Sequence record: KC690136
Origin: Escherichia phage JES2013
Reading direction: 5' to 3' (one strand)
DNA: 64,000 nt
Under the pieces are notes generated by a model. The model was not told where the DNA came from and searched no databases. It worked only from the letters and a program-made list of their open reading frames with translations. Positions 23,540-41,295 of the stretch are shown in pieces (position 1 is the first letter of the stretch; each line of letters opens with the position of its first letter). Position numbers and translations under genes: made by a program.

Positions 23540-23543
23540 CTGT

Positions 23544-24064: not shown

Positions 24065-24102
24065 AAGTACTTGGCACATCTCAATCTGAAAGGAGTCCCA
24101 AC

Positions 24103-24891: not shown

Positions 24892-24935
24892 TACAGAAGG
24901 GTGGTTATTCCACCCTTAGATATCTAAAACAGTTG

Positions 24936-24964
24936 TTGACAAACAGGTAAGATTTAGATATTAT
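24936..24964 (+). promoter_or_regulatory. Sigma70-like promoter TTGACA-N17-TATTAT
   Basis: Consensus hexamers; preceded by hairpin AGGGTGG-ttatt-CCACCCT after phoH stop. Confidence 0.6.
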
Positions 24965-24994
24965 TACCGGACAAGACAAGGAGAAGGAGATAGT

Positions 24995-25306: not shown

Positions 25307-25366
25307 AGGTAAATGTGAATCAGGTTTAAATAAATAGCTTTCAACTTCCAATATTAAGGATTTCTC

Positions 25367-26416
25367 ATGAATTTAACACCTCGCAGCACCATGGTACACG
25401 GCATGAAAGAAAAACAGAACGGTTTCGAACCTATGAGTAATAAAATGTTTGGTATGCCGGGTGGTATTATGGAAACATACAGCTACCCAACACCTGTTGT
25501 TGACCACGTTCTTTATATCGACGATTTGGAAGACTTACAAGATCATATGTCTCGTCTGCAGACGATCCGTATGGCTCAGCCGGAAGAAAGCATTCGGGTG
25601 ATCATCAATAGCCCTGGGGGTTGCGTGCACATTGCAATGGCTTATCTGCAGGCATTCCGCGAGTCTCAGGCAAGCGTTGTTGCACATGCTGAAGGGATGT
25701 GCTGCTCTGCTGGAACAATCTTATGGCTTGGTTGTAAAGAACGTACTGTGGCTCCGGACACAGAGTTTATGTTCCACTACTATCAAGGTGGCACTTATGG
25801 TAACGGTGTGAACATGAATACTCAGGTCAGCTACTGGAAAAAACGTTTTGAACGCCTGATCGAAAAATACTACGGTGGGGTGCTGACAGAAGATGAGATC
25901 GCATCCATCACAGCTGGTGGCGAAGTGTGGTTGGACGGAGAAGAGCTGGCAGCACGCACTGGAGCTATTATTCTGGATGAAGGCAACATACAACGCATCC
26001 AGAACGGACAAAAACCGAAAAAGCTTCTGGCAAAAGGTGATGAAGAAGGCGTGTTAGGTGAAGCAGGTCTTCCGGAGATTCACCAGTGCACATCTTTAGA
26101 TGAGTTAGTTCATGCTGTTGAATCTGCAAAAGCGGGTGGTTCGAAAGGTGATGTTCACACTGTGTTCCTGAATCTGCAGATGGAAAGTGGCGAGACCGTC
26201 AGAATTGCCCTGGGTGAGATTACTTCAGAAGATCTGCAGAGATTCTCTGTCGTTGAACTTCAGGATATTCTGTCTCAATTGAAGACTACTCTGAACGGCG
26301 GTGAAGAGGTTAAGGTGAAAGATAAGACGCGCAAGCGTCTGGTGGACAATATTATTAAAACAGCAAAAGAGCTCAATGAAAAAATCCTGGGTGCAGGAAT
26401 TGTCGAAGAAGCTTAA
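25367..26416 (+). CDS. ClpP/S14-family serine peptidase-like protein with C-terminal extension
   Basis: INSPGG, GMCCSAGTIL (active-site Ser region) and MFHYYQGG (His region) parallel ClpP. Confidence 0.6.
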   Translation: MNLTPRSTMVHGMKEKQNGFEPMSNKMFGMPGGIMETYSYPTPVVDHVLYIDDLEDLQDHMSRLQTIRMAQPEESIRVIINSPGGCVHIAMAYLQAFRESQASVVAHAEGMCCSAGTILWLGCKERTVAPDTEFMFHYYQGGTYGNGVNMNTQVSYWKKRFERLIEKYYGGVLTEDEIASITAGGEVWLDGEELAARTGAIILDEGNIQRIQNGQKPKKLLAKGDEEGVLGEAGLPEIHQCTSLDELVHAVESAKAGGSKGDVHTVFLNLQMESGETVRIALGEITSEDLQRFSVVELQDILSQLKTTLNGGEEVKVKDKTRKRLVDNIIKTAKELNEKILGAGIVEEA

Positions 26417-27317: not shown

Positions 27318-27557
27318 ATGTACAAGTCATTTTCAATTTACTCAAGACAGGCGAAACACTACACAGAGATCCTGATTACTCAGAAAAAATCTGTAGAAGG
27401 TGAGTGGGAATATCACCATAAAATGTTGCGTCCAGATTGGGTTTTTGATAGACTTATTGCTATGATCCCTCTTGGAGAAGTATACCCTCTGACAGGTCAT
27501 AGGGATGCTTGGGATTTAATTGATTACATAGATTCATTTAAGGAGCCCAGTGTATGA
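27318..27557 (+). CDS. Hypothetical protein
   Basis: Start refined to ATG after AAGGGGGG. Confidence 0.4.
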   Translation: MYKSFSIYSRQAKHYTEILITQKKSVEGEWEYHHKMLRPDWVFDRLIAMIPLGEVYPLTGHRDAWDLIDYIDSFKEPSV

Positions 27558-27952
27558 AGATTGAGATCACTAAAGAAGGTAAGAAAGTGTCTGGAGACTA
27601 TGCAACAGTAATTCGAGATTTAATGTTTGAAACCACCAAGTTCGGCACATCTAAAGTTGGTCAAACGGTGAGTGTGCAAGGTAATATCACCTCAGGAGAG
27701 AAGATAATCATCGTGATCAAAGGACAAGATCCTGTGGAAGGAACAGTGGGCCGAGGAGGCTACCTGTGCATTTCTGAAGAACCGCGCATGCTGGTTGCTG
27801 ATGACTCCACAGGTAAAAAGCGGGTATGTAACACTGACGAGGTGATGATTATCTATCCAGTCAACCCAGATGATCCTGCAACATGGATTGTGGGGAATGA
27901 AATCTTCTCTTTAGAAGAGTTATCATTCCCAGCTCCGCGCTCTGTTCAGTAA
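27554..27952 (+). CDS. Hypothetical protein
   Basis: 132 aa, begins MKIEITKEG. Confidence 0.5.
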   Translation: MKIEITKEGKKVSGDYATVIRDLMFETTKFGTSKVGQTVSVQGNITSGEKIIIVIKGQDPVEGTVGRGGYLCISEEPRMLVADDSTGKKRVCNTDEVMIIYPVNPDDPATWIVGNEIFSLEELSFPAPRSVQ

Positions 27953-27991
27953 TAATTTATCTTACCAGGGACGGTAGAAGTAGGAGGTAGC

Positions 27992-28225
27992 ATGAAAGTT
28001 AAATTTCTTACAGATTTAGGGTACCCTTCCTTGGTTGACTGCGTTGGTAAAATTGTGGAAGCAAAACGACTATCTGCAAACGATAATGTTGTCATGGTTA
28101 AGGGAAAAGATTTACTATCTGCAGGTGCAGAGTCTGGCAGGATCTCTCCTGACTATACGTATTACCTGTCTTTAAGTAATCTACCAGAACGAGGCGGCAA
28201 AGGCCTTGAAGTTGTGGAGGAGTGA
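27992..28225 (+). CDS. Small acidic protein, paralog family A
   Basis: MKVKFLTDLGYP...VKGKDLLSAGAESG...GLEVVEE; shares motifs with 31616, 31827, 33709, 33950 ORFs. Confidence 0.5.
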   Translation: MKVKFLTDLGYPSLVDCVGKIVEAKRLSANDNVVMVKGKDLLSAGAESGRISPDYTYYLSLSNLPERGGKGLEVVEE

Positions 28226-28230
28226 CAGGT

Positions 28231-28749
28231 ATGCTACTGGTTGATTGGAAAGATTTTTATGGCGATAAAGACCCGAAAGCATTTATATATAAGCCTTGGA
28301 GATACTCAGAGAGTCAAATTGCTGCAATAAACCTTACAGCAAAGCGCCGAAAAATTATTGAAAGTAAATATAGATACGCCCAGCTAGTGGCTGGTGTTTC
28401 TCCACAGGTAGAGGGTTTTGTACTTAAACTGTACGAAAAGTTTATGAATTACGATTTGTCATTCGTGAAGGTGGGCGAGGATTTATCCCCTGGTAACAAC
28501 GTAACTCGTTGGAAAGTTTCGTGTGACAAAAAACTCCCGATCAGTATTGAGGTGTGTCGATACTGGGGGTATCATGATTGTGGATTGTATGACTACCATG
28601 ATGTGGAAATAAAGCCACGCAATCATCTAAGCGACACAGAAAAAGATTACTTGAAGCATGTGATTCTTTCCATGTTTGGAGGGTATATCACAGAGAAAAA
28701 TAGCGAAGACAGAGTATCCTTTCTTAACAGTTTGAACCAGGAGATGTAA
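28231..28749 (+). CDS. Hypothetical protein
   Basis: Start refined to ATG after GGAGGAG. Confidence 0.5.
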   Translation: MLLVDWKDFYGDKDPKAFIYKPWRYSESQIAAINLTAKRRKIIESKYRYAQLVAGVSPQVEGFVLKLYEKFMNYDLSFVKVGEDLSPGNNVTRWKVSCDKKLPISIEVCRYWGYHDCGLYDYHDVEIKPRNHLSDTEKDYLKHVILSMFGGYITEKNSEDRVSFLNSLNQEM

Positions 28750-28750
28750 T

Positions 28751-28987
28751 ATGGCCATAGATACTGTGTTGGTTTGGTATTGCGCATTGACCTTTCTGAC
28801 AATGGTTGTTTTAGCAACTCTTTGCATCATATCTTGTAGAAAAATTAAGTTTGACGACTTTATAACTATAATCACTGCCGCACCTTTTTGGCCTGTCGTT
28901 CTCTTCATTGTTGTTATGTGCTTGGTAGATCACTGTAAAACCGTCAGAAAAATGAAGGAGGCAGATAAGAATGGTAACAGTGACTGA
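28751..28987 (+). CDS. Small membrane protein (two predicted TM helices)
   Basis: Two hydrophobic segments: LVWYCALTFLTMVVLATLCIISC and IITAAPFWPVVLFIVVMCLV. Confidence 0.5.
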   Translation: MAIDTVLVWYCALTFLTMVVLATLCIISCRKIKFDDFITIITAAPFWPVVLFIVVMCLVDHCKTVRKMKEADKNGNSD

Positions 28988-29101
28988 AACTGTTTATACT
29001 GTTCTTAGGGAGATTGCATTCTATACAGACCTTAGTTCAGTATCTTCATGGGAAAAGAGTGTGTATTTAAAATGGTGCGTGAAATTAGAGGGGACCTTCT
29101 A

Positions 29102-29221
29102 ATGTTTCAAGCCATGTTTATTGAAATGCTCTCCGGAGTATTACTGCTGGTAGCCATTTTGGGTGGTGCGGCACTAATGTATAATTATCTTGAAAAAGGA
29201 GACAGCAATGGTAAAAAATAA
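29102..29221 (+). CDS. Small membrane peptide (39 aa)
   Basis: sORF MFQAMFIEMLSGVLLLVAILGGAALMYNYLEKGDSNGKK; GAGGGGA SD; below ORF-track size cut-off. Confidence 0.3.
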   Translation: MFQAMFIEMLSGVLLLVAILGGAALMYNYLEKGDSNGKK

Positions 29222-29393
29222 ATCTTTAGAGCAGGCTGAAAACCTTCTCCACGAGCTGGTAAAGGAGTGGAAAGTTGAATACTCAGATTTTAATGCACGA
29301 GAGGGTGAAGATTATTGGCCTACGGAGCGCTCAGAGGGTGAATGGTATCAAGATTTTATAGAGTGGTTATATCAGACGTGCGATGAGGGGTGA
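29208..29393 (+). CDS. Hypothetical protein
   Basis: Start refined to ATG after AAAGGAG. Confidence 0.4.
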   Translation: MVKNKSLEQAENLLHELVKEWKVEYSDFNAREGEDYWPTERSEGEWYQDFIEWLYQTCDEG

Positions 29394-29851
29394 CGATGTT
29401 TGTTAAATATGTAAAAACGTGCCTCAACAGCCTTGGCAGAGAGCATTGGTACACCTTGCTTGAAAAAGGAGAGATTTTAACAAAATCTGGAAAGATAACT
29501 TTGATACCTCTTGACAGTAAAGACCCGTCACTACTTGTTATAGATGATTACGTTACAGGTGTGACGTTCGAGGTCTCTGTGGAGAGGTTAATACGCAGAG
29601 CTGGCGGCCCTTGTGATCAAAGAGAGTATGTTTTCGATTCCGTTACAGAGAGGGATCATCCGTCTTTAATGTTCAGGATGGTAATCAGAGATATGAGGTC
29701 ATCTATAGATAGGATCGTAAAGGACATTAAGGAACCTTTTAGAGTAAAAGTTAAGAAGTTTTTTGATTCTAAGATTAACATACTTGCCGTTGTGCTAGGC
29801 GTAATTCAACTTCTGTTAATTTTGCACTATTTTGAACTGTTGTCTAAGTAG
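29390..29851 (+). CDS. Hypothetical protein with C-terminal TM segment
   Basis: C-terminal hydrophobic LAVVLGVIQLLLILHYF. Confidence 0.5.
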   Translation: MTMFVKYVKTCLNSLGREHWYTLLEKGEILTKSGKITLIPLDSKDPSLLVIDDYVTGVTFEVSVERLIRRAGGPCDQREYVFDSVTERDHPSLMFRMVIRDMRSSIDRIVKDIKEPFRVKVKKFFDSKINILAVVLGVIQLLLILHYFELLSK

Positions 29852-29911
29852 TGTGCAACAAGGCACAAAGGATGTGCCATAATTAAACAAATTAAGAAAG
29901 AGGTAGAGAGA

Positions 29912-30259
29912 ATGTCAAAGATTAAATCGATATTAATGTGGGTAGCTGTTGTGGCTTTTATAGGGTACTGGGTTTGGGAAACTGAATTAAAAGATATCGG
30001 ATATACCAGTCTTGAGAGCAAGGCGTGCATTGGCATAACCGATGCGTTCAGGCAAAACGCTATGGATCACGAATGTGTTGATGCAGATATAGATGAGAAA
30101 CTGTCTAAGGACAAAGATTTTTACCATGGGCATGCTTTGCTTGATAGTGGTGACACTGTAGAGTTCTGGTCGTGGTTCCGTGAAGATGGAACAATAAAAA
30201 CAGCAGTAAAGATCTCTAACAAAGAGTTAATGCTGTTGCAGCAGAAGGAGGCTCAATGA
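29912..30259 (+). CDS. Membrane-anchored protein
   Basis: N-terminal hydrophobic segment ILMWVAVVAFIGYWVW. Confidence 0.5.
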   Translation: MSKIKSILMWVAVVAFIGYWVWETELKDIGYTSLESKACIGITDAFRQNAMDHECVDADIDEKLSKDKDFYHGHALLDSGDTVEFWSWFREDGTIKTAVKISNKELMLLQQKEAQ

Positions 30260-30543
30260 TCTGGATATCCTATACTGATGGCACCATGCTGTATACTGCA
30301 GGTACCCGATATGAGGTTCAGGAGGACGATAAAAAATTTATCGTAAAAACATTTGACAAGGACGACAACCTTTTGCTAGAATTGACTTACAAGGTTGGAG
30401 AGGTATCCGATATCCAATTGGATTGTGGTCATAAAGATAATCCACTCAAAAAACCTGGAATAGGCAAGGCTTCAGAAGAACGTTTGTCTCGTATTGCAGA
30501 AAGCGTTTCTCCCCAAAAATCTAAGAAGAGGAGTAGAAAATGA
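30256..30543 (+). CDS. Hypothetical protein
   Basis: 95-aa ORF with overlapping start/stop. Confidence 0.5.
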   Translation: MIWISYTDGTMLYTAGTRYEVQEDDKKFIVKTFDKDDNLLLELTYKVGEVSDIQLDCGHKDNPLKKPGIGKASEERLSRIAESVSPQKSKKRSRK

Positions 30544-30740
30544 GTGACAAAATTCTTAAATTTAATACCTACTATGAGAATGATTTGAACGATCTGTATT
30601 ATATAGTGCGTAGCGAAAACCCGAATGTAGTACTGTTTTGCCGAGAACCTTTCAAAGGAGAGGAGATTGAATCTACCATGAATGTGGATCAGATTTCACA
30701 CCTGCTGCTCCTTGGATCATTAAAAGAGGCTGTATTCTAA
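30540..30740 (+). CDS. Hypothetical protein
   Basis: 66-aa ORF. Confidence 0.45.
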   Translation: MSDKILKFNTYYENDLNDLYYIVRSENPNVVLFCREPFKGEEIESTMNVDQISHLLLLGSLKEAVF

Positions 30741-30759
30741 ACCAGGGTGGAGGGTTTTT

Positions 30760-30945
30760 ATGAAGCACTATTGTCTGTCTGGTAGAATGGGTGCAGATTG
30801 TGATTGGGTTTTCTTAAAACTTGTCAGTATTCGAGAGTTCATTCCAGAGGAAGAGCAAGAAAGTGAGCTGATGTCATGGATCAACCATTACGGTAACACT
30901 TTTCGGCATGTTAAGGTGGAAGAGTTGCCAAGCGAGGCTGATTGA
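30760..30945 (+). CDS. Hypothetical protein
   Basis: 61-aa ORF. Confidence 0.4.
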   Translation: MKHYCLSGRMGADCDWVFLKLVSIREFIPEEEQESELMSWINHYGNTFRHVKVEELPSEAD

Positions 30946-30947
30946 CT

Positions 30948-31037
30948 ATGATTGCATCAATATTAACGTTTATGGGTGGCGTGGCATTCGGATTCATTGT
31001 TTGCCTGTTTATAGTGATTATGTCTATGCGAGGCTGA
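30948..31037 (+). CDS. Small hydrophobic peptide (29 aa)
   Basis: sORF MIASILTFMGGVAFGFIVCLFIVIMSMRG fills gap between flanking ORFs. Confidence 0.3.
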   Translation: MIASILTFMGGVAFGFIVCLFIVIMSMRG

Positions 31038-31040
31038 ATT

Positions 31041-31334
31041 ATGAAACTTTTTGAGTGGTTTAAAAAGTTTAAATATAAAGCTGTAGCCATCGTGCCGTGG
31101 TCCATTCAGTGGGTGGACGATGAGGGATTACCAATTCCAGGTGATAAAGACACGGGATACTGGATCATGCTTGAGAACGGGTTCGGTAAACGGAAATATT
31201 CCTGCACGGATACCTCAGGAGCATCTTTTAGGAGAATTCCTGGGTATAAATGTATGATTGTGTGGAAGATGTCTGGTGTACCTCCGGCCAATGCACAATA
31301 TCTTACTACCAATCCAACCACAGAAGAGGACTAA
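31041..31334 (+). CDS. Hypothetical protein
   Basis: 97-aa ORF. Confidence 0.5.
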   Translation: MKLFEWFKKFKYKAVAIVPWSIQWVDDEGLPIPGDKDTGYWIMLENGFGKRKYSCTDTSGASFRRIPGYKCMIVWKMSGVPPANAQYLTTNPTTEED

Positions 31335-31337
31335 GTA

Positions 31338-31619
31338 ATGAAAAAGATTTGCGATACAGATGTGGAGTTCAAGGTGTGTAGTAAGGAGACCTATTGGGAA
31401 GTGAGACAAAAGGTATATTTGTTTGGACTTATCCCATATTGGTCTAAATTCTACTGGGGAGCAGATGAATTAGGGAGATATGCCACCAAAGCTATGGCGC
31501 TTATAGGTATAGCTGAATATATTGCTGCTAGGGACAGGGCTGGAAAAACCTGCTACTACACTGCTGACGAGATTCGTAACAGTGTTTACGTCCCCCAACC
31601 ACCTGAAGGAGACCGTTGA
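31338..31619 (+). CDS. Hypothetical protein
   Basis: 93-aa ORF. Confidence 0.5.
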   Translation: MKKICDTDVEFKVCSKETYWEVRQKVYLFGLIPYWSKFYWGADELGRYATKAMALIGIAEYIAARDRAGKTCYYTADEIRNSVYVPQPPEGDR

Positions 31620-31843
31620 TGAAAGTTAAAGTTTTAGATTCAAGCTTCTATATTGGTCAGGAGCCTTTAGTGGGTAAAGTGTTTACCGCTGTCCCTAACG
31701 AAGATTATCCTGATCTTTTAAAAATAAAGGGCGCAGATCTTATTGCCGCTGGTGCATCTCAGGACTGCTTTGACAGCCAGTGGACCTACAACTTTGCCCT
31801 AGGTGAGGATGTAGAGATAGTGGAGGATGATCATGAAGGTTAA
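31616..31843 (+). CDS. Small acidic protein, paralog family A
   Basis: MMKVKVLDSSFYIGQEPLVGKV...IKGADLIAAGASQD. Confidence 0.5.
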   Translation: MMKVKVLDSSFYIGQEPLVGKVFTAVPNEDYPDLLKIKGADLIAAGASQDCFDSQWTYNFALGEDVEIVEDDHEG

Positions 31844-32087
31844 AATTCTTGACTCTAACGTCTACTTGGGGCAATCCTTCCTGAAAGGAAAGGTCATCCC
31901 TGCGGTATACTTTGAAGGGTTGCCGTGGGATGATCCTGTGCGGCAACATCACAGTTATGTAGGCCACAACGTGGTGTTTATCTTAGGATCAGACCTGATC
32001 ACCGCTGGTGCACCTGAATATTATTTCGGGGAAGAGTCCTATTATGCCTTTGGGGTAGGGTCAGATGCAGATATTGTAGAGCTGTGA
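31827..32087 (+). CDS. Small acidic protein, paralog family A
   Basis: MKVKILDSNVYLGQSFLKGKV...ILGSDLITAGAPEY; tandem to 31616 ORF. Confidence 0.5.
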   Translation: MIMKVKILDSNVYLGQSFLKGKVIPAVYFEGLPWDDPVRQHHSYVGHNVVFILGSDLITAGAPEYYFGEESYYAFGVGSDADIVEL

Positions 32088-32099
32088 TGGGTAACCGTT

Positions 32100-32498
32100 G
32101 TGAAAAATAAACTGTTCAAAGTTACAATGAAAATTCGCGGAGCTTGGAGCGTAAAGCAAGGGCGTATCCCAGAATTTGAGAAAGATTTCTACGTAGTCTC
32201 CACCTCGGAGGAGGCTGCATGCTGGCAGGCTGGCTATGCCTATGCAAGAACCTGGTACGAAGGATACCAGACTGGGGGCTATGACGGAGAAATTATCAGC
32301 AAGGGTGTAGAAGAAATTAATGTGTTGACAAGTGAAAAAGTTTTTGTTATAGTGCATCCAGATTCCAGAGTGAAGCATTACTGGAATGCCAGAACAAAAA
32401 CTTGGACACCGTTTGCAGATTCTGCTACGCCACTTTTAAACCAGAAAGCTCTTGACTCTGCCCCAAGTTATGGGGTTGTTGAAGAAAAGCTAAACTGA
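32100..32498 (+). CDS. Hypothetical protein, paralog family B
   Basis: HPDSRVKHYWNARTKTWTP parallels HPHSNIAYYWDVLNNEWTP in 34309 ORF. Confidence 0.5.
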   Translation: MKNKLFKVTMKIRGAWSVKQGRIPEFEKDFYVVSTSEEAACWQAGYAYARTWYEGYQTGGYDGEIISKGVEEINVLTSEKVFVIVHPDSRVKHYWNARTKTWTPFADSATPLLNQKALDSAPSYGVVEEKLN

Positions 32499-32515
32499 AA
32501 CAGTGAGGTGTCACC

Positions 32516-32806
32516 ATGATGGATTTAATTCTAAATATTGATAACGCAGAAGAATTTAAAGACGATGGTGTAACAAGCATGGGCAAACCATGCTCTGCTA
32601 AGGTTGACTCAAAATGGACCTACAAGTTTGACGGAGAGATCTTCGCAAATGATGAGAAGGTTGTAGATGCTGCAGCCATTTTAAACGCTCTAGGGTACGA
32701 CCCTGTGAATTCTTTGATCAAGGATCCTGTTGAGTTTGCAGAGTATGTTCGAAAAATGGCAGATCTTGCTGTGGATATTTTAAAAACTATCGACAACAAG
32801 CTGTAA
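32516..32806 (+). CDS. Hypothetical protein
   Basis: 96-aa acidic ORF. Confidence 0.5.
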   Translation: MMDLILNIDNAEEFKDDGVTSMGKPCSAKVDSKWTYKFDGEIFANDEKVVDAAAILNALGYDPVNSLIKDPVEFAEYVRKMADLAVDILKTIDNKL

Positions 32807-32812
32807 AAACTG

Positions 32813-32841
32813 TTGACACAACGCTTCAGATTTAGTATCAT
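32813..32841 (+). promoter_or_regulatory. Sigma70-like promoter TTGACA-N17-TATCAT
   Basis: Consensus -35, 17-nt spacer; about 50 nt upstream of the hibernation factor gene. Confidence 0.55.
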
Positions 32842-32888
32842 TGTTTTCAAAGAGGGTTTGGTTCCCTCTTCTTTAAAAGGAACATGTT

Positions 32889-33206
32889 GTGCAAATTGAA
32901 ATCACTGGCAACGTAGAGATCACTGAAGGTATGGTGTCTTTCATTTCCCACAAAATGTCTAAGCTGGAGCGTTTGCACCCCTCTGCCAACTATGCACGTG
33001 TGAGTGTAAAAGTTGAAAATGATCACCAGGAAGTCATGGCGTTCATTTTTGACACTTCCGGAAAAGAAGTTATTGCCAAAGCTAAAGGCAGTAACGCTTA
33101 CGAGGCAACTGACCGTATGGTAGATGTTGCAGCACGTCAGTTGGCTAAATGCGGTGGAAAGAAAGGTAAAGGGAAAGGCAAAGTAAAGATTGACTTTGGA
33201 GAATGA
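32889..33206 (+). CDS. hpf: Ribosome hibernation promoting factor / RaiA (YfiA) family protein
   Basis: MQIEITGNVEITEGM...KLE...VSVKVE...AKAKGSNAYEATDRMVDVAARQL parallels E. coli HPF MQLNITGNNVEITEAL...; GTG start; lysine/glycine-rich tail. Confidence 0.8.
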   Translation: MQIEITGNVEITEGMVSFISHKMSKLERLHPSANYARVSVKVENDHQEVMAFIFDTSGKEVIAKAKGSNAYEATDRMVDVAARQLAKCGGKKGKGKGKVKIDFGE

Positions 33207-33215
33207 GGTGCTACA

Positions 33216-33317
33216 ATGGGCGTGATTAAGAAATTAGTCCCAAATGTAGAGATTGCATGCTTTGAAATTATGTTTGCAATCGCAGTTGTAGTTAATGTGT
33301 TAGGTTACGGCTATTAA
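33216..33317 (+). CDS. Small membrane peptide (33 aa)
   Basis: sORF MGVIKKLVPNVEIACFEIMFAIAVVVNVLGYGY; GGTG SD 5 nt upstream; just after hpf. Confidence 0.3.
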   Translation: MGVIKKLVPNVEIACFEIMFAIAVVVNVLGYGY

Positions 33318-33343
33318 TATCAAATAATTGAGGAGACCTCTAA

Positions 33344-33613
33344 ATGAAAATTAAATTATTCAAAACTGAGCTGGCAGACAAAAACTGTGGACTGGTTGAA
33401 GGCATGATCGTTGAAGCACAACCAGTGGACTACATGAAGGTAGTTCGTGATGCCTTGGGTGAAGGCTTTGATCTGATGGAGCCAGCTCTGCGAGAAGATG
33501 TTATCGAGATGGCTAAAAAGCACACACCTGAAGGCTTGGTGGTGTTTGTTGCACCGGGTAACGGAGAAGAGTTGATTGTAACTCCTGATGTGTATGAGAT
33601 TGTAGAAGAGTAA
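33344..33613 (+). CDS. Small acidic protein (possible diverged family A member)
   Basis: MKIKLFKTELADKNCGLVEGMIVEA...YEIVEE; acidic C-terminal YE[IV]VEE tail. Confidence 0.5.
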   Translation: MKIKLFKTELADKNCGLVEGMIVEAQPVDYMKVVRDALGEGFDLMEPALREDVIEMAKKHTPEGLVVFVAPGNGEELIVTPDVYEIVEE

Positions 33614-33708
33614 TCCTGCTCGGATTAGCATACTTCTCTCAATAAAAAGAAAAGTTTGTAATTATTTGTGGGAAAGGAATCCCCATCTCTTGCCAGAGGT
33701 GATACTAT

Positions 33709-33972
33709 ATGATTGTTTATTTTAAAACTTCAGGTGGATACCCTGATTCTCAAAGCTTGATCGGAAAAACGTGCACAGCATACTCACCTCTTGATGAGGA
33801 GGTAAGCGATATTCTACGAGATATGTATCGGATTGATCCCCAAAAAGCTTTTGATCAAAACCTTGTATTTGTCAAGGGCTCAGACATGAAGTCTTTGGGA
33901 GCATTCCCTGAAGCAGATGATGATGCCGTTTATTCGTTCATGACTCCTTTTGAAGCTATGGTTGTTGGGTGA
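33709..33972 (+). CDS. Small acidic protein, paralog family A
   Basis: GYPDSQSLIGKTCTA...VKGSDMKSLGAFPE. Confidence 0.5.
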   Translation: MIVYFKTSGGYPDSQSLIGKTCTAYSPLDEEVSDILRDMYRIDPQKAFDQNLVFVKGSDMKSLGAFPEADDDAVYSFMTPFEAMVVG

Positions 33973-34309
33973 GAATATGAAAGTACGATTTATTGGTGAA
34001 ACAATTCCTGTGCATCTCCGGTCGCCTGAAGATTCTGCAGATCTTGCATCTCAGAAGGCGAGAGGTTATGATAAGAAAGTAATCTCAAACGCTGTAGAAC
34101 TTGAGGCTACTAGTTTACCTGACCCTGCCGCATTCTTTAATCATTATGGATACTATTTCAGCAATCTGATGAATATCGGTGAGCTTGTGTTTATTAGTGG
34201 TGGAGAAATTGTTAGCAAGCTTGGCGGCGATCCGGATGTCTTTCATGAAACCTGTCCTTTTGCATTTGTGGTAGGTTCAGATGTGGAAGTTATTGAGGAG
34301 GTGCGGTAA
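33950..34309 (+). CDS. Small acidic protein, paralog family A-like
   Basis: FISGGEIVSKLGGDPD...VEVIEEVR; probable true start at internal MKVRFIG. Confidence 0.5.
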   Translation: MKLWLLGENMKVRFIGETIPVHLRSPEDSADLASQKARGYDKKVISNAVELEATSLPDPAAFFNHYGYYFSNLMNIGELVFISGGEIVSKLGGDPDVFHETCPFAFVVGSDVEVIEEVR

Positions 34310-34704
34310 TGGTAAGACTATACCGTGTTGAGTATAGCTCAGATACTGTATACAACGTAAGAAGCAAAGATCGCAGCGACAGAGTGCAAGAAATGTATGT
34401 TCTTGCCGACAGTCCGTTATCTGCAGCGTTCAAGGCAGGGTCTCTTGCATCTCGTTGGAAATTTGAAGGTGGATCTTTCTATGAAGAAACCCTTGAAGAT
34501 TCTGTTGTTATTTCTTCTGCAGAGGTTTCAGATGACTACGAAGGGAAAAAGTTCGTAATGCGGCACCCACACAGCAACATTGCGTACTACTGGGATGTTC
34601 TGAACAACGAGTGGACCCCAGATCTTCAGAAGGCCACTGTGCTAACACCGTTTTTGGCAGATAAGTTTCCACCAGAAGGTAATTTATCCGCACTGTTTCA
34701 GTAA
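34309..34704 (+). CDS. Hypothetical protein, paralog family B
   Basis: Shares HP.S...YW......WTP motif with 32100 ORF. Confidence 0.5.
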   Translation: MVRLYRVEYSSDTVYNVRSKDRSDRVQEMYVLADSPLSAAFKAGSLASRWKFEGGSFYEETLEDSVVISSAEVSDDYEGKKFVMRHPHSNIAYYWDVLNNEWTPDLQKATVLTPFLADKFPPEGNLSALFQ

Positions 34705-34722
34705 TTTTCTTGCACACAGGTG

Positions 34723-34751
34723 TTGACAACGCCAACCCTGTGTGAAATAAT
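34723..34751 (+). promoter_or_regulatory. Sigma70-like promoter TTGACA-N17-AATAAT within palindrome CACAGG...CCTGTG
   Basis: Consensus -35; inverted repeat spans the -35 and spacer. Confidence 0.5.
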
Positions 34752-34780
34752 ACCTTCATCTTAACAAGACAGGAGACCGA

Positions 34781-35041
34781 TTGATGAAGATTAAATTGAA
34801 AAACCTTGAAACGGCAGAGATTCAGGACGGTGTGGATTTCCGTTCTAAAGATGGTGACATCTTAGAGGTAAATATTCCAACCTACGAGCTGATCAAAGGT
34901 TTTGGCAACGTCCCCGAGGAAGGTATCGCAGACGTTCTTATAATGTTAATCGTTAGTGGGACAGTGTTCTTGGGGGAAGGTGAGAACGCTATTGCAATCC
35001 CAAGCCATTTTTATGAAGTAGTTGACGAAGAGGCGCTGTAA
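34781..35041 (+). CDS. Small acidic protein
   Basis: MMKIKLKNLETAEI...FYEVVDEEAL. Confidence 0.5.
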   Translation: MMKIKLKNLETAEIQDGVDFRSKDGDILEVNIPTYELIKGFGNVPEEGIADVLIMLIVSGTVFLGEGENAIAIPSHFYEVVDEEAL

Positions 35042-35392
35042 ATGAAAGTAGAAATTACTGGTTTTGATGTGAATGTGGTTCCGGAAGATATTTTAGCTAA
35101 ACTCCCGGAAGGTTTTGGTAACGGTGTTGTGGTGGATGCTGTTCCTCCTACCAAAGACATTCTGCTGCAGTATGGTGTAGCAGAGGAAGATGTTGATAAA
35201 GTTCTTACAATGATGGCAATCGATCGTGTTGTCGTTGTTAAAGGTCTCGATAATTTTGAGAGTGATCCTCTGATTATTCGTGGAGATGACTACAAAATCA
35301 TCGATAATGAAGGCCAAGAGTTCTATGAGCCTTGTGCAGAAGATATTCTTAACTTATTACTGGAAGCAGGCACCGAAGAGGAGGACGAATAA
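35042..35392 (+). CDS. Small acidic protein
   Basis: MKVEITGFDVNVVPED...; acidic C-terminus. Confidence 0.5.
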   Translation: MKVEITGFDVNVVPEDILAKLPEGFGNGVVVDAVPPTKDILLQYGVAEEDVDKVLTMMAIDRVVVVKGLDNFESDPLIIRGDDYKIIDNEGQEFYEPCAEDILNLLLEAGTEEEDE

Positions 35393-35721
35393 TGAAGATT
35401 GACCCGTTACTGAAGGCTCGTGCAGAAAAAGCGTACACCATTAAGCTGACCAACCTGGTTCCTACTTGTCATCCAGATGTAGGTTGGCCCGAAGGTTTGG
35501 TGGAGGGAACTGTAACAGCTGCATACCTTCCTAACATCAAATACCTCATGGAGATCTTAGAGATGGATGAGGAAACTGCAGAACAGTTCCAGTTGGATAT
35601 GAAACAGAGTGGGACTCTGGTTATTCACGGGTGGTATAATACTAAAGATGCAGAAGACCCTCTGGTAACTTCTAATCTGGCATATGAAATCTTAGGGCCT
35701 TTGAACCTGGAGGAAGACTAA
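35392..35721 (+). CDS. Small acidic protein
   Basis: 109-aa ORF, overlapping start/stop with neighbours. Confidence 0.5.
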   Translation: MKIDPLLKARAEKAYTIKLTNLVPTCHPDVGWPEGLVEGTVTAAYLPNIKYLMEILEMDEETAEQFQLDMKQSGTLVIHGWYNTKDAEDPLVTSNLAYEILGPLNLEED

Positions 35722-36008
35722 TGAAAGATCTGGTTAAGATTAAGATTAAAGATACCAATGGGGAGCTCAGCCATTTTGGAATTAATGATGGTGACGAGCT
35801 GATCGCACACCTGCCTACCAAGGAGGTTGTAAGCAAAGCAGTTGCCGGAGAAGAAGCTGCAATGCAGGCTGCAGGTGTGGATGAAAACTATGTAGCTATG
35901 TGCATGTGCCGAGATCAGGTTGTTCTGTATAAAGCGTATCGACCAAACGGAGCCACGGAGTGGCTTGTATTCCGACCCGAAGGATATGAAATCTTAGAGG
36001 CACTATGA
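35721..36008 (+). CDS. Small acidic protein
   Basis: MKDLVKIKIKDTNGE...GYEILEAL. Confidence 0.5.
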   Translation: MKDLVKIKIKDTNGELSHFGINDGDELIAHLPTKEVVSKAVAGEEAAMQAAGVDENYVAMCMCRDQVVLYKAYRPNGATEWLVFRPEGYEILEAL

Positions 36009-36088
36009 TAAATCTTGCCAAGGTTGCAACGGCACTGTTAATTATTTGCTGGTCAGTAACCTTAACACTGTGTCTTGTATTTCAGTGA
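36005..36088 (+). CDS. Small hydrophobic peptide (27 aa)
   Basis: sORF MINLAKVATALLIICWSVTLTLCLVFQ; ATG overlaps upstream stop. Confidence 0.3.
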   Translation: MINLAKVATALLIICWSVTLTLCLVFQ

Positions 36089-36097
36089 GGTGCTTGT

Positions 36098-36361
36098 ATG
36101 AACATCCTGATGTGGGTTATAGCAGTGGCGTTTGTTGCATGTTTTTGCTGCTGGGTTGCGGTGAGGATTTCTGTAGCTACCCTTCGGAAGTTGGGGTTCT
36201 CAGAATGGGATATTAATATCCTTTCTTTTCGCAATGAGACAATATCAGCCGCCCTGCTTTGTAAGAAATTCAAGTGGGAACCTTGTGAGGTCATGAACTA
36301 TCTAAGAACGGGAGATATCCCTGAAAGATTTAAAAAAGTTCTTGACGGTAAGGATAAATGA
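36098..36361 (+). CDS. Membrane-anchored protein
   Basis: N-terminal TM MNILMWVIAVAFVACFCCWVAV. Confidence 0.5.
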   Translation: MNILMWVIAVAFVACFCCWVAVRISVATLRKLGFSEWDINILSFRNETISAALLCKKFKWEPCEVMNYLRTGDIPERFKKVLDGKDK

Positions 36362-36389
36362 TAGTATAGTGACTAACAAGAGGTGAGGA

Positions 36390-36530
36390 ATGACAGATTT
36401 TACTGAAGCTTTAATGATGGCCTTGTCTGTTTTAGCGCTATCGGTGTGTTTTGGGGCGTTATTCACATCTCTGGTTAAAGTTTTACATACAGTATTATTA
36501 CCCAAGGAGCGCAGTAATGACGAAGATTGA
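36390..36530 (+). CDS. Small membrane peptide (46 aa)
   Basis: sORF MTDFTEALMMALSVLALSVCFGALFTSLVKVLHTVLL...; GGTGAGG SD. Confidence 0.3.
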   Translation: MTDFTEALMMALSVLALSVCFGALFTSLVKVLHTVLLPKERSNDED

Positions 36531-36768
36531 CTTGAATGCTGGCGACCATGTTGTTGTCAAATGCATCGGAGATTATCTTGGATTCACAATCGGCAATACT
36601 TACGAGGCGGTAGTGGCGAAGGTTTATCATGATAAAGTCCTCAGTCTTGTATTTGACTGCGATGATGATGGGGATGACCGATACGTCTGTGAGGTGCTGG
36701 CACGAGACGATAGTGAAGACCAGAAATTCCTGGTTATTGAACTGAACGGTATTTTTGTAGAACGTTAA
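36517..36768 (+). CDS. Hypothetical protein
   Basis: Start refined to ATG after AAGGAG (MTKIDLNAGDHVV). Confidence 0.45.
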   Translation: MTKIDLNAGDHVVVKCIGDYLGFTIGNTYEAVVAKVYHDKVLSLVFDCDDDGDDRYVCEVLARDDSEDQKFLVIELNGIFVER

Positions 36769-36796
36769 TTTAAAACAACATAAGGAGACTCTTACT

Positions 36797-37102
36797 ATGG
36801 CTAAATCTAAAGTTGAACTGTTCACCTCTCTTCCTTCTGACACTGCAGAGCGTGATCGCCTTCGCAAAACAATCGAAGAACTGGTGGAACTCCAACTTCA
36901 GATTAAAGATCTGAAAGATGCCATCAAGGATATCATTCTTGTTGAGAAGCAGGATCATCTGTATTCTCCTAAATTCATCAAATCTCTGGTGGCTACCGAG
37001 TTCGATATTCGATATGAGGCTGAAAAACGTCGAGCTAAAATCGAAGAAGAGGTTGAGCACATGTCCGAGGCAGACATTCTGTTCAAACGCTCTGTAGAAT
37101 AA
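36797..37102 (+). CDS. Hypothetical coiled-coil protein
   Basis: Charged heptad-like sequence; AAGGAG SD. Confidence 0.55.
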   Translation: MAKSKVELFTSLPSDTAERDRLRKTIEELVELQLQIKDLKDAIKDIILVEKQDHLYSPKFIKSLVATEFDIRYEAEKRRAKIEEEVEHMSEADILFKRSVE

Positions 37103-37110
37103 TGACAAAG

Positions 37111-37135
37111 AGAGGGGCTTGGGCCCCTCTTTTTA
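37111..37135 (+). terminator. Rho-independent terminator GAGGGGC-ttgg-GCCCCTC + TTTTT
   Basis: Perfect 7-bp GC stem and T tract after stop. Confidence 0.7.
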
Positions 37136-37157
37136 CTATCTATGAAGGAGATTTGAG

Positions 37158-37484
37158 ATGGGTATACCGATCACTGTAAAAGAATTGAATGAACGTGATG
37201 CAGGTGGTCTATGGCCTGCACGAAAAATACGCTGCGTCTACATGAAAGAGAACCTTGAACATCTTGATCAACAGATCAAGGTCGGTGATATTTTCGAGGT
37301 CTTCTATTCCAATCGTCGCAACTGGGAAACCATTCAGCCTTCTGGTTTTGTTCTTGCCAAACTTGACACTGGAGAAGTGATTATCCCAGGGTTGGATATT
37401 GTCTTCGAAATTATCCAGGAGTGGGATCCGGATAAGATTAGATATGAAGAGTTATTCGGTGAAGGTATTATCAAACCTGTGTGA
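37158..37484 (+). CDS. Hypothetical protein
   Basis: 108-aa ORF. Confidence 0.5.
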   Translation: MGIPITVKELNERDAGGLWPARKIRCVYMKENLEHLDQQIKVGDIFEVFYSNRRNWETIQPSGFVLAKLDTGEVIIPGLDIVFEIIQEWDPDKIRYEELFGEGIIKPV

Positions 37485-37792
37485 GGTGGATTATGTCTAC
37501 AAAGACGGCTAAATACTCCTACATGCCATCAACCTCTGCAGAGGTAGATTTTAGTTTCGATGTGTTTCCACTGTTTGAGGTGGTTCTGGCATACCCAACA
37601 ATACTATCTACTCCGGAATCACTTGTGCCTGTTAAGTTGCAGAACGCCATGCATTCTATGCACTACAACAATAAATGCAGGCACAGATGGTGTCAGGACG
37701 AGGAAAAAGATCTGGATAGTTTGAGAGATTTTGACAGTCACCTTTTGACACCTTTCAGCTACTCCAACCTTGATAAGCCATCATGGGTATAG
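37481..37792 (+). CDS. Hypothetical protein
   Basis: 103-aa ORF. Confidence 0.45.
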   Translation: MRWIMSTKTAKYSYMPSTSAEVDFSFDVFPLFEVVLAYPTILSTPESLVPVKLQNAMHSMHYNNKCRHRWCQDEEKDLDSLRDFDSHLLTPFSYSNLDKPSWV

Positions 37793-37816
37793 CAAAATAT
37801 CAAATTTAAGACACCT

Positions 37817-37844
37817 AGGACGCTCTGTGGCGTCCTTTTCTTTA
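37817..37844 (+). terminator. Rho-independent terminator AGGACGC-tctgtg-GCGTCCT + TTTCTTT
   Basis: 7-bp stem, T-rich tail, just after 37792 stop. Confidence 0.7.
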
Positions 37845-38005
37845 TCTGGTGCACGATTGCATACCTTGGACAGATAATCTCCTTACAGAGCGTTTAAGAG
37901 CTTCCTACAAACAACTCTCTTTTTCGAGCGTAGCGAGAACGCACGTCCGTTTTGACCAAAATCACCATACGCTCGGATTTTAACCAAACCCTCGCGGCGT
38001 TTCTG

Positions 38006-38034
38006 TTGACACATTGCCGCTCCAGTGATAATAT
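38006..38034 (+). promoter_or_regulatory. Sigma70-like promoter TTGACA-N17-TAATAT
   Basis: Consensus hexamers; lies inside track ORF 37952..38365, so that ORF's 5' part is unlikely to be coding. Confidence 0.6.
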
Positions 38035-38054
38035 CCACACATCATTTGGAGAAT

Positions 38055-38156
38055 ATGGAATACACAATGAAAACATTGTCCGAAGTTTTAGTGGTGATCC
38101 TGATGATCATTACGTCCATAGCGGCTGTTGCCGGAATACTCACGGGTGGAACATGA
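38055..38156 (+). CDS. Small membrane peptide (33 aa)
   Basis: sORF MEYTMKTLSEVLVVILMIITSIAAVAGILTGGT; GGAG SD; stop overlaps next ATG (ATGA). Confidence 0.35.
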   Translation: MEYTMKTLSEVLVVILMIITSIAAVAGILTGGT

Positions 38157-38365
38157 TCAACACACATGCATCTGAAGAGACATCAAAAGGAGTGACTATA
38201 TGTCCCTTGGCTGAGCCAGTGAAAGAGGAAAACTTCGATTCTGAAGATTCTCCATCTTCGCTCCAGGTAGACCCTGAGGCTGATGACCTAACGTGGGAAG
38301 ACATCGTAGATATCTGGTTCTCTGTTATGCCTGAGCACGAAGAGTTCAGGGGTGGTAGACTATGA
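38153..38365 (+). CDS. Hypothetical acidic protein
   Basis: 70-aa ORF translationally coupled to upstream peptide. Confidence 0.4.
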   Translation: MINTHASEETSKGVTICPLAEPVKEENFDSEDSPSSLQVDPEADDLTWEDIVDIWFSVMPEHEEFRGGRL

Positions 38366-38486
38366 AGCACCGAGCCCACACAAGTTCCTCATGCTAAAGC
38401 ATGGCCTGAAGAGGCAAACGTGCATAATTCCTGTGCATCGGAACGTATGAAACCTTGTTCACACTCTCATTTCCAGAGGAGATTTT

Positions 38487-38702
38487 ATGAAGATAGAAAT
38501 ATTTGGTGGAGCTGACAACACTCGTGGCCTGATTTACCTTGAATTCGATGAATCATACCTACCAGAGGTGTTAAATATAGACTCTGTTGCGGAGGCTTTG
38601 GGAGTAAACCCTAAAGAACTCCACTCTTGTGCTGAGATCGATGGTTGGGAAGAGACCATGAACATTGATTTCAGTGAAGTAGAGGATGAACCGCTGGACT
38701 GA
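38487..38702 (+). CDS. Small acidic protein
   Basis: MKIEIFGGADNTRGLIYLEFDE...; last gene of rightward block. Confidence 0.5.
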   Translation: MKIEIFGGADNTRGLIYLEFDESYLPEVLNIDSVAEALGVNPKELHSCAEIDGWEETMNIDFSEVEDEPLD

Positions 38703-39541
38703 CACACAATTAGCTGCCCGGCTAAAGTGCTGGAAGCACCTATAACACATCTTTCAACTAAATTTCCCACCACAACAATCACTTACCTCCCATACATGAC
38801 TGTTTGCTTGTTTAGTGAGCAGTCATGCCTTGACATTCTTGCCTATCCTGATAAAATTAAGTTCTTCTCTTTTCTTTTACCGAGTAATTCGGGTTTTCTG
38901 TTCTCTTCGGTTTGAAGGGGTATGGAGATACACCTGAGTGAACAGGGTGAACAACCGAACATTTGGCTATGGCATTAGCATGGCGAAGCGGACGGGTGAC
39001 GAAAGAGGGGCCGGAGGACACCAGTCACTGCCATATGGTATATGGGTGATAACCTGAAGAGTCTGAATAAGTGTTTAAGTACCAGTCAGAGGAAAAGGTG
39101 AATGGTAGCCGAAGGGGGAGGGGGGTTTCTTGTATCTTTAATTTGTATATTATGTATACACTTGTAAACCAATCTCATTTGAATTTGTTTACCACACAAA
39201 GTGGATAGAGACAAATATTACCTATTAAACTTGAATTATTTATAGAAAATACCACAACACTACTTAAGTCTTTGATTTTACACACAAATCCTGCAGATAT
39301 TCACCCTCCATATTTAACATACTTGTAACATATTCCATACTCTACCTGCCCGATCAATTCACCCAACTACATCCCCATATTTTCCCTGTCTGTACTACCC
39401 CTGCCCCGCCGGGAGTCCCGTCATATCTGGCTTTCCAGCAAATATCACACCCACAAATATCATTGCCTGAAGAGGGTTTCGTCCCATAATACATGCCTTA
39501 CCTGAAGAGCGCTTCATATACCCCGTAAATTTTTTAATTGA

Positions 39542-39574
39542 CCCCCTCCCCGCCGCCGGAGGGGTCGGCTTTTC
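39542..39574 (+). terminator. Terminator-like hairpin CCCCTCC-ccgccgcc-GGAGGGG + TCGGCTTTT
   Basis: GC-rich stem followed by T tract in gene-free region. Confidence 0.5.
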
Positions 39575-40120
39575 CCACACAGACCTGAAGAGTCAGCCAG
39601 AAATATCTGAATGGACCCAATTCTGCCCTGTTATGAGCCGTAGCGACTGGAGTGCTGCCAGGCGGACGAAATGGGAATACTTCTCATTCTTATAACAATT
39701 CTCAAATATCGAGGCAGTGAGGCAAATTAATAGGTAAGGCCGTTCACATAGTGGCACAACATTTGCAGTCTATCTGATGTGGTTGAATGAGAATACCTAT
39801 CATTGTGAGAATAGTTATCATTACGGGCAATTTAACATAATACCCATTATGCGCACCACTGGCGATACATACAGGGATTGATAACATGAGTTACTGTTTA
39901 CGCATATAACAATTATATTTCTTATCATTTGTGTGGGATATAGTTAGCAGCCGATAGATTAGATATTGACCTGCGGACTTCTGACCGTCTAGACGTCTAA
40001 ACGCCCACACAACAAGGCTTATACATACATCGCTGAATGTAAACATGGCCGCAAAAATGCTACCATACAAGATTGTAAATTTTTCATGCAGCACTTGACA
40101 AAGAGGAGAAAAACTTGTCT

Positions 40121-40162
40121 GACACTTTAGACATACTGGTGACACAATATGACACTTTAGAC
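40121..40162. repeat. Direct repeat GACACTTTAGAC (two copies, 30 bp apart), followed by iterated TGTTTAC/TGTTCAC motifs to about 40360
   Basis: Exact 12-mers at 40121 and 40151; at least eight (A)CTGTTTAC-like motifs in the next 200 bp. Confidence 0.55.
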
Positions 40163-40449
40163 TTAATTGACATGCCTGACTGTTTACGCTGTCACTATTC
40201 GCGCTATTACTATTCACTCCCTTTACTGTTCACGCTCTTACTGTTTACATGCTTAATGGTTTACATGCTTAATAGACTGCATGTCTAATAGTTTACATAG
40301 CTAACTGTTCACATACTTATCATTTACATGATTGACTGTTTACACAGAGATGATAAGCCATGACATTCGTTTGCATGACAATAATTAACAAGATAACAAT
40401 TGACAAGCTAACAGCCAACAAGCTGACAATTAACTTGTTTACAATAGAT

Positions 40450-40615
40450 GACATAATATAAAAGCAGGGCAACTATTAGAAGATCTATAGTTGCCTTGCT
40501 TGTTATGTCATGATTAACTAAATACAAGGCAACTATGATCTGATTAATAGTTTGCAAACAAACTATCACGGGGGTGATGGTTACTGCTTTTATATTATGT
40601 CGCGACTCCGTCGCG
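40450..40615. repeat. Nested inverted repeats: 18-bp arms GACATAATATAAAAGCAG / CTGCTTTTATATTATGTC around palindrome GGCAACTAT-N10-ATAGTTGCC, plus CGCGAC-tcc-GTCGCG
   Basis: Arms at 40450-40467 and 40584-40601 are exact reverse complements; inner palindrome 40468-40495; GGCAACTAT also recurs at about 40517 and 40634. Confidence 0.6.
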
Positions 40616-41295
40616 CCATGCCATTCGTTTGCATAGTTGCCTTATTGTTACAGATAAAATAATTGTATTGTTAATTATTTCTTATCTTTCTATTAGTCAT
40701 CTAATGATTCCAGTCAATATAGTAATGTACAGTAAACATTAGACGACTAAAGATTTATCTGCTTATAATAACTTACCGTGACAATTTCGGACTGTTTACG
40801 AAAAATGTTGGCACCTAAGCTGATTTATGTTATGCAGTTTACACGAATAATTATTTTATGCAGGTATTGACTATTCCATTATTCTATGGTTGGAATAAAT
40901 ACTTAGCAGACTATAGAATGGTGAGCGTACGTAAATTCTGAGATCTGGCGGCTATAGTTATACTCGATTTTTCACGTAGAGCACGCTTTTGTGGTTATGT
41001 AAGTGTATGACTTATAAAGATTTTTAGTTGTTGACAAGACACTGAAGATATGCATCAGGTTAAATTTTGTGCAATAGCTGCATTACGTGCAATTTTGGAA
41101 GGAAAAACGGGTAAAAATAGCCCTGCTACCACACAATGAAAAGTTATGCAATAGTTATTTTACATGTATATTTGTACAGTGTGTGGGGTTGATGGCTCGT
41201 CAATTATTCCACTTGCCAGGTAGGGCCGTTTATGGTAGGGGGAAGATCAGACAAAAAGAAAGGGGCCTAAGCCCCTTGATAATTCAGTTAAAAAA

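Follow-up and report, generated by a model that had tools for sequence, protein, structure and literature searches.

Three families of small paralogous proteins, two of them with a predicted SH3-like fold, in an accessory gene block of Escherichia phage JES2013

Phage gene blocks that carry accessory and counter-defence functions are already familiar as a kind of locus. A block orthologous to the one analysed here belongs to phage Bas54, which its locus tags identify as MaxBurger. Transposon insertion sequencing (Tn-seq) on E. coli K-12 classed every gene of that block as non-essential or 'intermediate', and knockouts validated the need for two Bas54 genes, bas54_0140 and bas54_0063 (MoxR ATPase), against DS-28, a predicted two-gene defence system (HIDEN-SEQ, bioRxiv 10.1101/2025.11.20.689424). 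In phage rV5, genes 82-163 are assigned to a single transcription unit with E. coli-type promoters, and the rV5 genome paper makes no mention of paralogues (PMC3606486). Phages of the rV5 type are frequent candidates for therapy and biocontrol directed at pathogenic E. coli, and about two thirds of their genes are without known function. We analysed the equivalent block of Escherichia phage JES2013 (KC690136), located at positions 27554-38702 of a 64,000-nt stretch of DNA (the window), to whose whole length all coordinates refer. The block contains 36 annotated coding sequences of 33-172 amino acids, all placed on the + strand; 11 of the 35 junctions between them overlap, and another six are spaced by 0-5 nt. 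The initial annotation of the sequence had described about 35 small, co-oriented and often overlapping open reading frames (ORFs) as one paralogous array. This arrangement was borne out, whereas the single array was not, as paralogy is confined to 12 of the 36 genes, which fall into three families: A (five genes), B (two) and C (five). The proteins themselves, the SH3-like fold predicted for two of the families, the repeated A-A-B gene order and the link to Tn-seq phenotypes that had gone unremarked are new. The 11-kb block provides concrete, testable host-range and anti-defence candidates, four family members being needed specifically in a uropathogenic strain.

Paralogous families A, B and C

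The relatedness of the family A proteins was evident from BLASTP (E 1e-14 to 4e-3) and from Smith-Waterman alignments compared with shuffled sequences (p 2e-14 to 1e-2). When the family profile was compared by hhalign with the 278 ORFs of 55-200 amino acids in the window, exactly five scored above 99% probability and the next one reached 5.7%; neither this profile nor the family hidden Markov model (HMM) recruited additional members. These five are the ORFs that had been singled out for an MK[VI]K[VIF]L-type N-terminus, with three of the starts now revised, since paralogue alignment placed the initial MKV codons at 31619, 31833 and 33977 and not at 31616, 31827 and 33950. More broadly, an N-terminus of the form M[KQ][IV][KERD] was found in 12 of the 36 block genes versus 1 of 89 genes elsewhere. 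In the PHROG collection, family A is split over phrog_5009, phrog_13920 and phrog_13661.

Family C corresponds to the ORFs with an acidic 'YEIVEE tail' (33344, 34784, 35042, 35392 and 35721), a tail that had been noticed in the initial annotation. Single pairs are sub-threshold (p 2e-4 to 6e-3, Smith-Waterman against shuffled sequences), and it is as a group that they are significant: six of the ten within-group pairs were among the top 21 of 496 pairs (hypergeometric 5e-7). In leave-one-out profiles, from which the orthologues of the omitted member had also been removed, this member always came first among the non-members (58-93% probability, E 1e-4 to 3e-7), with near full-length alignments. 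The five proteins are assigned to five PHROG groups (phrog_11868, 12359, 12155, 12457 and 12794). ORF 38487 was considered as a sixth member and rejected, having reached 23% in one leave-one-out run and 2.2% with enriched profiles.

The family B pair (32100/32127 and 34309), first noticed through a shared HPxS...YW......WTP motif, was confirmed by BLASTP (E=1e-9), and both proteins belong to phrog_7379. The alignment with 34309 reaches upstream as far as the GTG codon at 32100, which favours this start over the annotated ATG. An exhaustive HMMER search with family B returned only five real relatives, one of them a newly added distant one. Five large repetitive adhesins (Big_9, cadherin-like, MBG) were discarded as repeat-inflated artefacts, as their matches were to short repeats. 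The reservation that the shared motifs might lack statistical significance was thus removed by both alignment and HMM tests. Another 22 block ORFs were compared with family A and C profiles enriched with divergent orthologues, and none of them joined either family (<=2.9%).

Structures were modelled with AlphaFold2 from the paralogue and orthologue alignments of each family. The family A model (31619; mean predicted local distance difference test, pLDDT, 91.8) has strands at residues 2-5, 21-23, 33-37, 56-61 and 65-69 and a short helix at 38-43. The family C model (33344; pLDDT 91.8) shows the same order of five strands, with three helices (residues 30-60) between strands 2 and 3. In both models, the five-stranded barrel is superposable on SH3/KOW/PsaE domains. 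Proteins of families A and C are accordingly modelled as single-domain SH3-like beta-barrels, those of family C with a helical insert. Fold class and insert position are common to the two models as judged from separate comparisons. When A was aligned with C by hhalign, the probability was 1.4%; with profiles enriched from L009, a divergent rV5-like metagenome lineage, it was 13% (P=0.002), in register over beta1-beta3. A common origin of the two families is plausible; it is not significant in sequence and unproven.

In line with the initial impression that no described family could be assigned, sequence searches of Pfam, NCBIfam, PADLOC and PDB returned zero matches for A, B, C or the singleton 37493. 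In PADLOC-DB, representatives of the three families had no match, and the only hit was a weak one of 38487 to a 'control protein' (E=0.0035). A fold search of BFVD returned uncharacterised phage proteins only. The block proteins matched PHROG models end to end (E 1e-32 to 1e-76); all A, B and C groups are labelled 'unknown function' there, and the A/C paralogy is only partly captured. We found no paper describing any of the three families.

The block region matches KP869102.1 (E. coli O157 typing phage 4, a Vequintavirus) with 100% identity and some 120 rV5-like phages with 90-98%; the protein 33344 is conserved at 95% identity or more in 116 phages. Among 5.8 billion proteins, relatives of A, B and C formed 35, 8 and 53 clusters, respectively, with a narrow distribution, nearly all of them coming from contigs as large as a Vequintavirus genome. 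The order of the block is kept in two divergent rV5-like metagenome lineages. The first of these, L009, encodes proteins 29-97% identical to those of the block, including five A, one B and five C proteins and a ribosome hibernation factor of the HPF type. The second and more divergent one, L058, has one A gene, one B gene with unrelated genes ahead of it, four C genes and no HPF gene in the fetched part of the block. The two ORFs preceding its family B gene were ruled out as divergent family A members. An IS605-family OrfB/TnpB (Cas12f-like) gene is inserted within the homologous block of L058 at 8532-9644.

The paralogous copies are 23-49% identical to one another and each has its own, one-to-one orthologue in L009, so the duplications are old and stably retained, and the description of the locus as tandemly amplified does not hold. 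Purifying selection was observed for all block genes in comparison with phage FV3, the ratios of nonsynonymous to synonymous substitution rates (dN/dS) being 0.09 in both A and C, 0.065 in B and 0.106 in the remainder. The gene order A-A-B is present twice (31619-31833-32100 and 33709-33977-34309). Duplication of an A-A-B cassette in one step was rejected, because both A genes of the first cassette are nearer to 33977 than to 33709. The metagenome protein P0011 (70 amino acids) is a natural hybrid of the first 47 residues of 31619 and the last 23 of 31833, and its sequence is evidence that neighbouring family A paralogues have recombined unequally; P0086, which bears the C-terminus of 35392, is a chimera of similar kind. 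Outside the rV5-like phages, a single family A gene occurs between antiterminator Q and holin in temperate mEp021-like coliphages (46 IMG/VR loci). The protein mEp021_40/P0031 is 49% identical to 27992 (E=2e-20), and the mEp021 paper is silent on gp40. The position of the gene in this 'moron' slot fits a portable host-interaction module.

Requirement of block genes in a uropathogenic strain

Most of the block orthologues bas54_0167 to bas54_0135 share 95-100% protein identity with the JES2013 proteins, and the pooled transposon data for Bas54 allow K-12 to be compared with CFE311, a uropathogenic clinical E. coli isolate. Three adjacent genes lost all insertions in CFE311: reads fell to zero from 142 in bas54_0152 (33709, family A, 97.7% identity; log2 fold change -7.16), from 71 in bas54_0151 (33977, A, 95.5%; -6.17) and from 108 in bas54_0150 (34309, B, 96.9%; -6.77). 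Jointly, these genes contain 59 TA sites. The other family B gene, bas54_0157 (32127, 100% identity), was depleted with a log2 fold change of -2.14 and the singleton bas54_0140 (37493, 98%) with one of -5.5, the adjusted p being <1e-5 for all five genes. The value for the family C gene bas54_0153 (33344) was -2.8 and not significant, while HPF, bas54_0154, the C genes 0146-0149 and the other three A genes (including bas54_0166, the orthologue of 27992) were unaffected. The HIDEN-SEQ text does not comment on the fact that A and B genes were depleted (bioRxiv 10.1101/2025.11.20.689424). In its Extended Data Table 8, sheet S6 (labelled K-12 vs CFE303) duplicates sheet S7 (K-12 vs CFE311), the '311' wig file being the origin of both, so that the stored supplement lacks the CFE303 results.

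We interpret the locus as an accessory block with host-specific roles, its products acting on proteins of the host and most likely on those of strain-specific immunity, and give this interpretation a probability of roughly 55%. It is supported by the selective loss of 0150-0152, together with the depletion of 0157 and 0140, next to flanking genes (0149, 0154 and HPF) that tolerate insertions. If an anti-defence gene is understood as one that is dispensable in a permissive host and required in the presence of a given defence, 37493 is such a gene through the knockout of bas54_0140. The block is the accessory last part of the long rV5-type transcription unit for replication and nucleotide metabolism and is unneeded on the laboratory host; its genes would encode host-interaction factors transcribed by host RNA polymerase from sigma-70 promoters. 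The products may be small proteins that bind host proteins stoichiometrically, their most likely targets being components of strain-specific anti-phage immunity. Each diverged SH3-like paralogue would have its own target or binding specificity, and family B (~130 amino acids) would serve as partner or effector. One uropathogenic strain requires the A-A-B trio 33709-33977-34309 together with the other B gene, the singleton 37493 counters DS-28, and HPF is an unrelated neighbour that would act on ribosomes. The earlier proposal of a host-takeover or anti-defence locus in an early region is thus strengthened in its second part by the CFE311 requirement and by the action of 0140 against DS-28; the putative early expression is deduced solely from the sigma-70-type promoters.

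Several points weigh against this interpretation. Families A, B and C were matched to no defence system, only DS-28 and Gao_Tmn have been cloned from CFE311, and knockouts were built only for 0063 and 0140. As the three genes without insertions adjoin one another and are translationally coupled, polar effects on 0150 alone could account for the loss. In CFE311, three of the five A genes and the C genes 0146-0149 have no phenotype, and the change in 0153 is not significant. The SH3-like fold is generic and implies no particular function, and all three families show high conservation throughout the genus, which sets them apart from many anti-defence genes with rapid turnover. No literature on the transcriptome or on expression timing was found, and the Tn-seq source is a preprint with a mislabelled sheet (S6) that covers one clinical strain. 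A further-reading version can be put forward tentatively: A and B might form a new counter-defence module against an immune system of uropathogenic E. coli, with A portable across Vequintaviruses and mEp021-like phages, and C might comprise SH3-topology nucleic-acid mimics like CarS.

The same depletion could arise from non-immune adaptation to the host, such as a differing host factor or a prophage-encoded exclusion, or from polarity, with only 34309 being important and the A genes bystanders. Tail-fibre and DNA helicase genes are likewise conditionally essential in CFE311 (bioRxiv 10.1101/2025.11.20.689424), so not all hits are anti-defence genes. The genes 33709, 33977 and 34309 are adjacent and coupled (4-nt gap, 1-nt overlap), and the family B gene of L058 has no adjacent A genes. 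However, insertions in the upstream genes of the unit (HPF and 0154) were tolerated, the block also contains 0140, whose anti-defence role was validated, and the HIDEN-SEQ authors report little polarity overall and argue against its being widespread (bioRxiv 10.1101/2025.11.20.689424). We consider this explanation unlikely. The block phenotypes point to a host factor in CFE311, and the immune reading, if confirmed, would bring a new protein family into the counter-defence repertoire of phages and would aid in predicting and engineering host range.

Another possibility, raised with the initial annotation, is that the small acidic proteins, and those of family C in particular, imitate DNA and thereby titrate DNA-binding proteins of the host, for instance restriction enzymes or nucleoid proteins. 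The products of the block are indeed mostly acidic, as had been stated: their median isoelectric point (pI) is 4.85, and the pI is below 5.5 in 25 of 36 versus 30% of the upstream genes (p=0.001). Acidity is strong in 35042 (net charge -21, pI 4.05), in 31619 (pI 4.05) and in the non-member 38487 (net charge -16), and some family members have a pI of 4.05-4.4. CarS provides a precedent with SH3 topology (PMC2926617), and the family C genes, being without phenotype in the conditions tested, leave room for such a role. On the other hand, Pfam, NCBIfam and PDB sequence searches revealed no homology to known mimics (Ocr, ArdA, Arn, CarS). The Vequintavirinae are moreover exceptionally susceptible to restriction-modification systems (BASEL paper, PMC8594841), which argues against an Ocr-like anti-restriction function. 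DNA mimicry therefore appears improbable for this block.

The HPF gene had been recognised correctly in the middle of the block. Its product exceeds the cutoffs of both Pfam PF02482 (7e-12, 46.4 bits vs 23.7) and TIGR00741 (45.1 vs 40.9, residues 1-91). The MQIEITG start, taken earlier as a sign of kinship with the paralogues, aligns with position 1 of the HPF profile and is a normal HPF feature. The protein was outside the top matches of the A and C profile scans and scored 0.2% and 0.4% with enriched profiles. Judged by these comparisons, it is a bona fide HPF/YfiA protein unrelated to A and C. In Bas54, insertions were recovered at 18 of 18 TA sites of the gene, which is non-essential. We found no literature on phage-encoded HPF. 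Families A, B and C might nevertheless form, with the embedded HPF, a module for takeover of the ribosome and translation: HPF, one C, two A and one B gene lie behind the common promoter P144, and the weak structural neighbours of the models include KOW proteins and SH3-like proteins of the ribosome. Such a module is contradicted by the lack of any homology between HPF and A or C and by the response of CFE311, which is affected by insertions in A and B genes and not in HPF. It is also contradicted by the fetched part of the L058 block, where A, B and C occur without HPF, and by the temperate-phage A gene, which has no HPF nearby. We regard it as very improbable. Finally, the idea that the shared motifs are chance resemblances among spurious small ORFs, which could appeal to the sub-threshold single pairs of family C and the non-significant A-C comparison, is refuted by profile and leave-one-out tests that separate the members cleanly from 273 other ORFs, and is further opposed by the dN/dS of ~0.09, the orthologues in divergent phages and the confident AlphaFold models.

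Anatomy of the block and its surroundings

The block constitutes the distal end of a long unit whose other products include RNA and DNA ligases, ThyX, NrdAB/DG, PhoH and ClpP, and at its 3' limit transcription converges with that of a minus-strand block. Coordinates of the genes and transcription signals are collected in the table.

Table 1. Genes and signals of the accessory block in JES2013 (window coordinates)
Feature	Position	Strand	Remarks
Accessory block	27554..38702	+	36 small genes; = rV5 ORF126-163; = Bas54 bas54_0167 to bas54_0135
Family A member 1	27992..28225	+	77 aa; predicted SH3-like; phrog_5009; nearest to mEp021_40/P0031
Family A member 2	31619..31843	+	74 aa, pI 4.05; AlphaFold model query
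Family A member 3	31833..32087	+	84 aa; 11-nt overlap with member 2
Family A member 4	33709..33972	+	87 aa; BLASTP and profile
Family A member 5	33977..34309	+	110 aa, with inserts; BLASTP and profile
Family B member 1	32100..32498	+	132 aa from GTG 32100; annotated ATG 32127 gives 123 aa
Family B member 2	34309..34704	+	131 aa; start overlaps stop of family A member 5
Family C member 1	33344..33613	+	89 aa; AlphaFold model query
Family C run, four genes	34784-35041, 35042-35392, 35392-35721, 35721-36008	+	abutting or 1-nt overlaps; net charge -6 to -21
Short HPF/YfiA-family ribosome hibernation factor	32889..33206	+	105 aa, pI 9.0
Singleton gene, bas54_0140 orthologue	37493..37792	+	99 aa; no Pfam, NCBIfam or PADLOC match
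Variable segment, six genes incl. gp133 orthologue (29396-29851)	29396..31334	+	absent from Bas54
Sigma-70-type promoter (TTGACA-17-TATCAT), rV5 P144	32813..32841	+	gap 5' of HPF gene
Sigma-70-type promoter (TTGACA-17-AATAAT, extended -10 TG), rV5 P150	34723..34751	+	gap before 34784, 5' of family C run
Bidirectional intrinsic terminator	37107..37132	.	downstream of ORF 36797; annotated in rV5
Terminator	37817-37836		

Some genes of the block differ from the rest in their conservation. The ORF at 29396-29851 is the orthologue of the virion-associated gp133, and the gene and its five neighbours are entirely absent from Bas54. Since Bas54 does without it, the gene encodes a dispensable virion-associated protein from within the accessory block, possibly one that is packaged or ejected. 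Next to this deletion-prone segment, the region 28231-28987 is a local divergence hot spot, where ORFs 28231 and 28751 are 52-56% identical to their Bas54 counterparts versus 95-100% for most block genes. The orthologue of 28231 carries the BASEL label 'putative glycosidase', for which Pfam gave no support. The most conserved gene of the block is 36797-37102 (dN/dS 0.01; 86% identity in L009 and 73% in L058). It encodes a charge-rich protein of 101 amino acids with the RefSeq label 'transcriptional regulator' and a weak GapR-like match (E=0.04), and its Bas54 orthologue has 'intermediate' fitness; it may be a regulator and not an accessory gene.

Directly downstream of the block, the non-coding region ~38900-41300 corresponds to the 'non-coding' box of rV5, and the sign of the GC skew flips there. 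Its Bas54 equivalent is an intergenic region of ~2 kb (bas54_0134/0135) in which zero transposon insertions were tolerated in HIDEN-SEQ, and it is probably an essential cis-acting element. The record KP869102.1 ('partial genome') is rearranged relative to the window, the 8.9-kb segment 38938-47813 being located at 17500-26295 of that record; two other Vequintaviruses, FFH2 and navn, are collinear with the window. On the minus strand at 60188-60606, two adjoining small ORFs (64 and 75 amino acids) form a probable paralogue pair (BLASTP E=1e-4). The ORF of this region that starts with MKVKYL was tried as a family A member and rejected, its profile probability being only 3.3%.

Comparison with described systems

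The HPF protein resembles the short HPF/YfiA factors in its full-length match and comparable length. It differs from them in being phage-encoded, in falling short, at 53 bits, of the 125-bit cutoff for the E. coli HPF equivalog and in being dispensable in Bas54. The family A protein mEp021_40 of the mEp021-like/mEpimmI phages is a single-copy homologue from a temperate background, with no B or C genes and no HPF nearby. The A, B and C proteins have zero sequence similarity to described anti-defence proteins and, unlike bas54_0140 with DS-28, were matched to no cognate defence. Like bas54_0140 and the other HIDEN-SEQ genes, two of the A genes and both B genes are small, dispensable in the laboratory host and needed only in particular strains. 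In structure and proposed mode of action, a parallel to families A and C is the CarS antirepressor of Myxococcus, a small acidic SH3-like beta-barrel that acts purely by binding its partner (PMC2926617), as the A and C proteins may do with proteins of the host.

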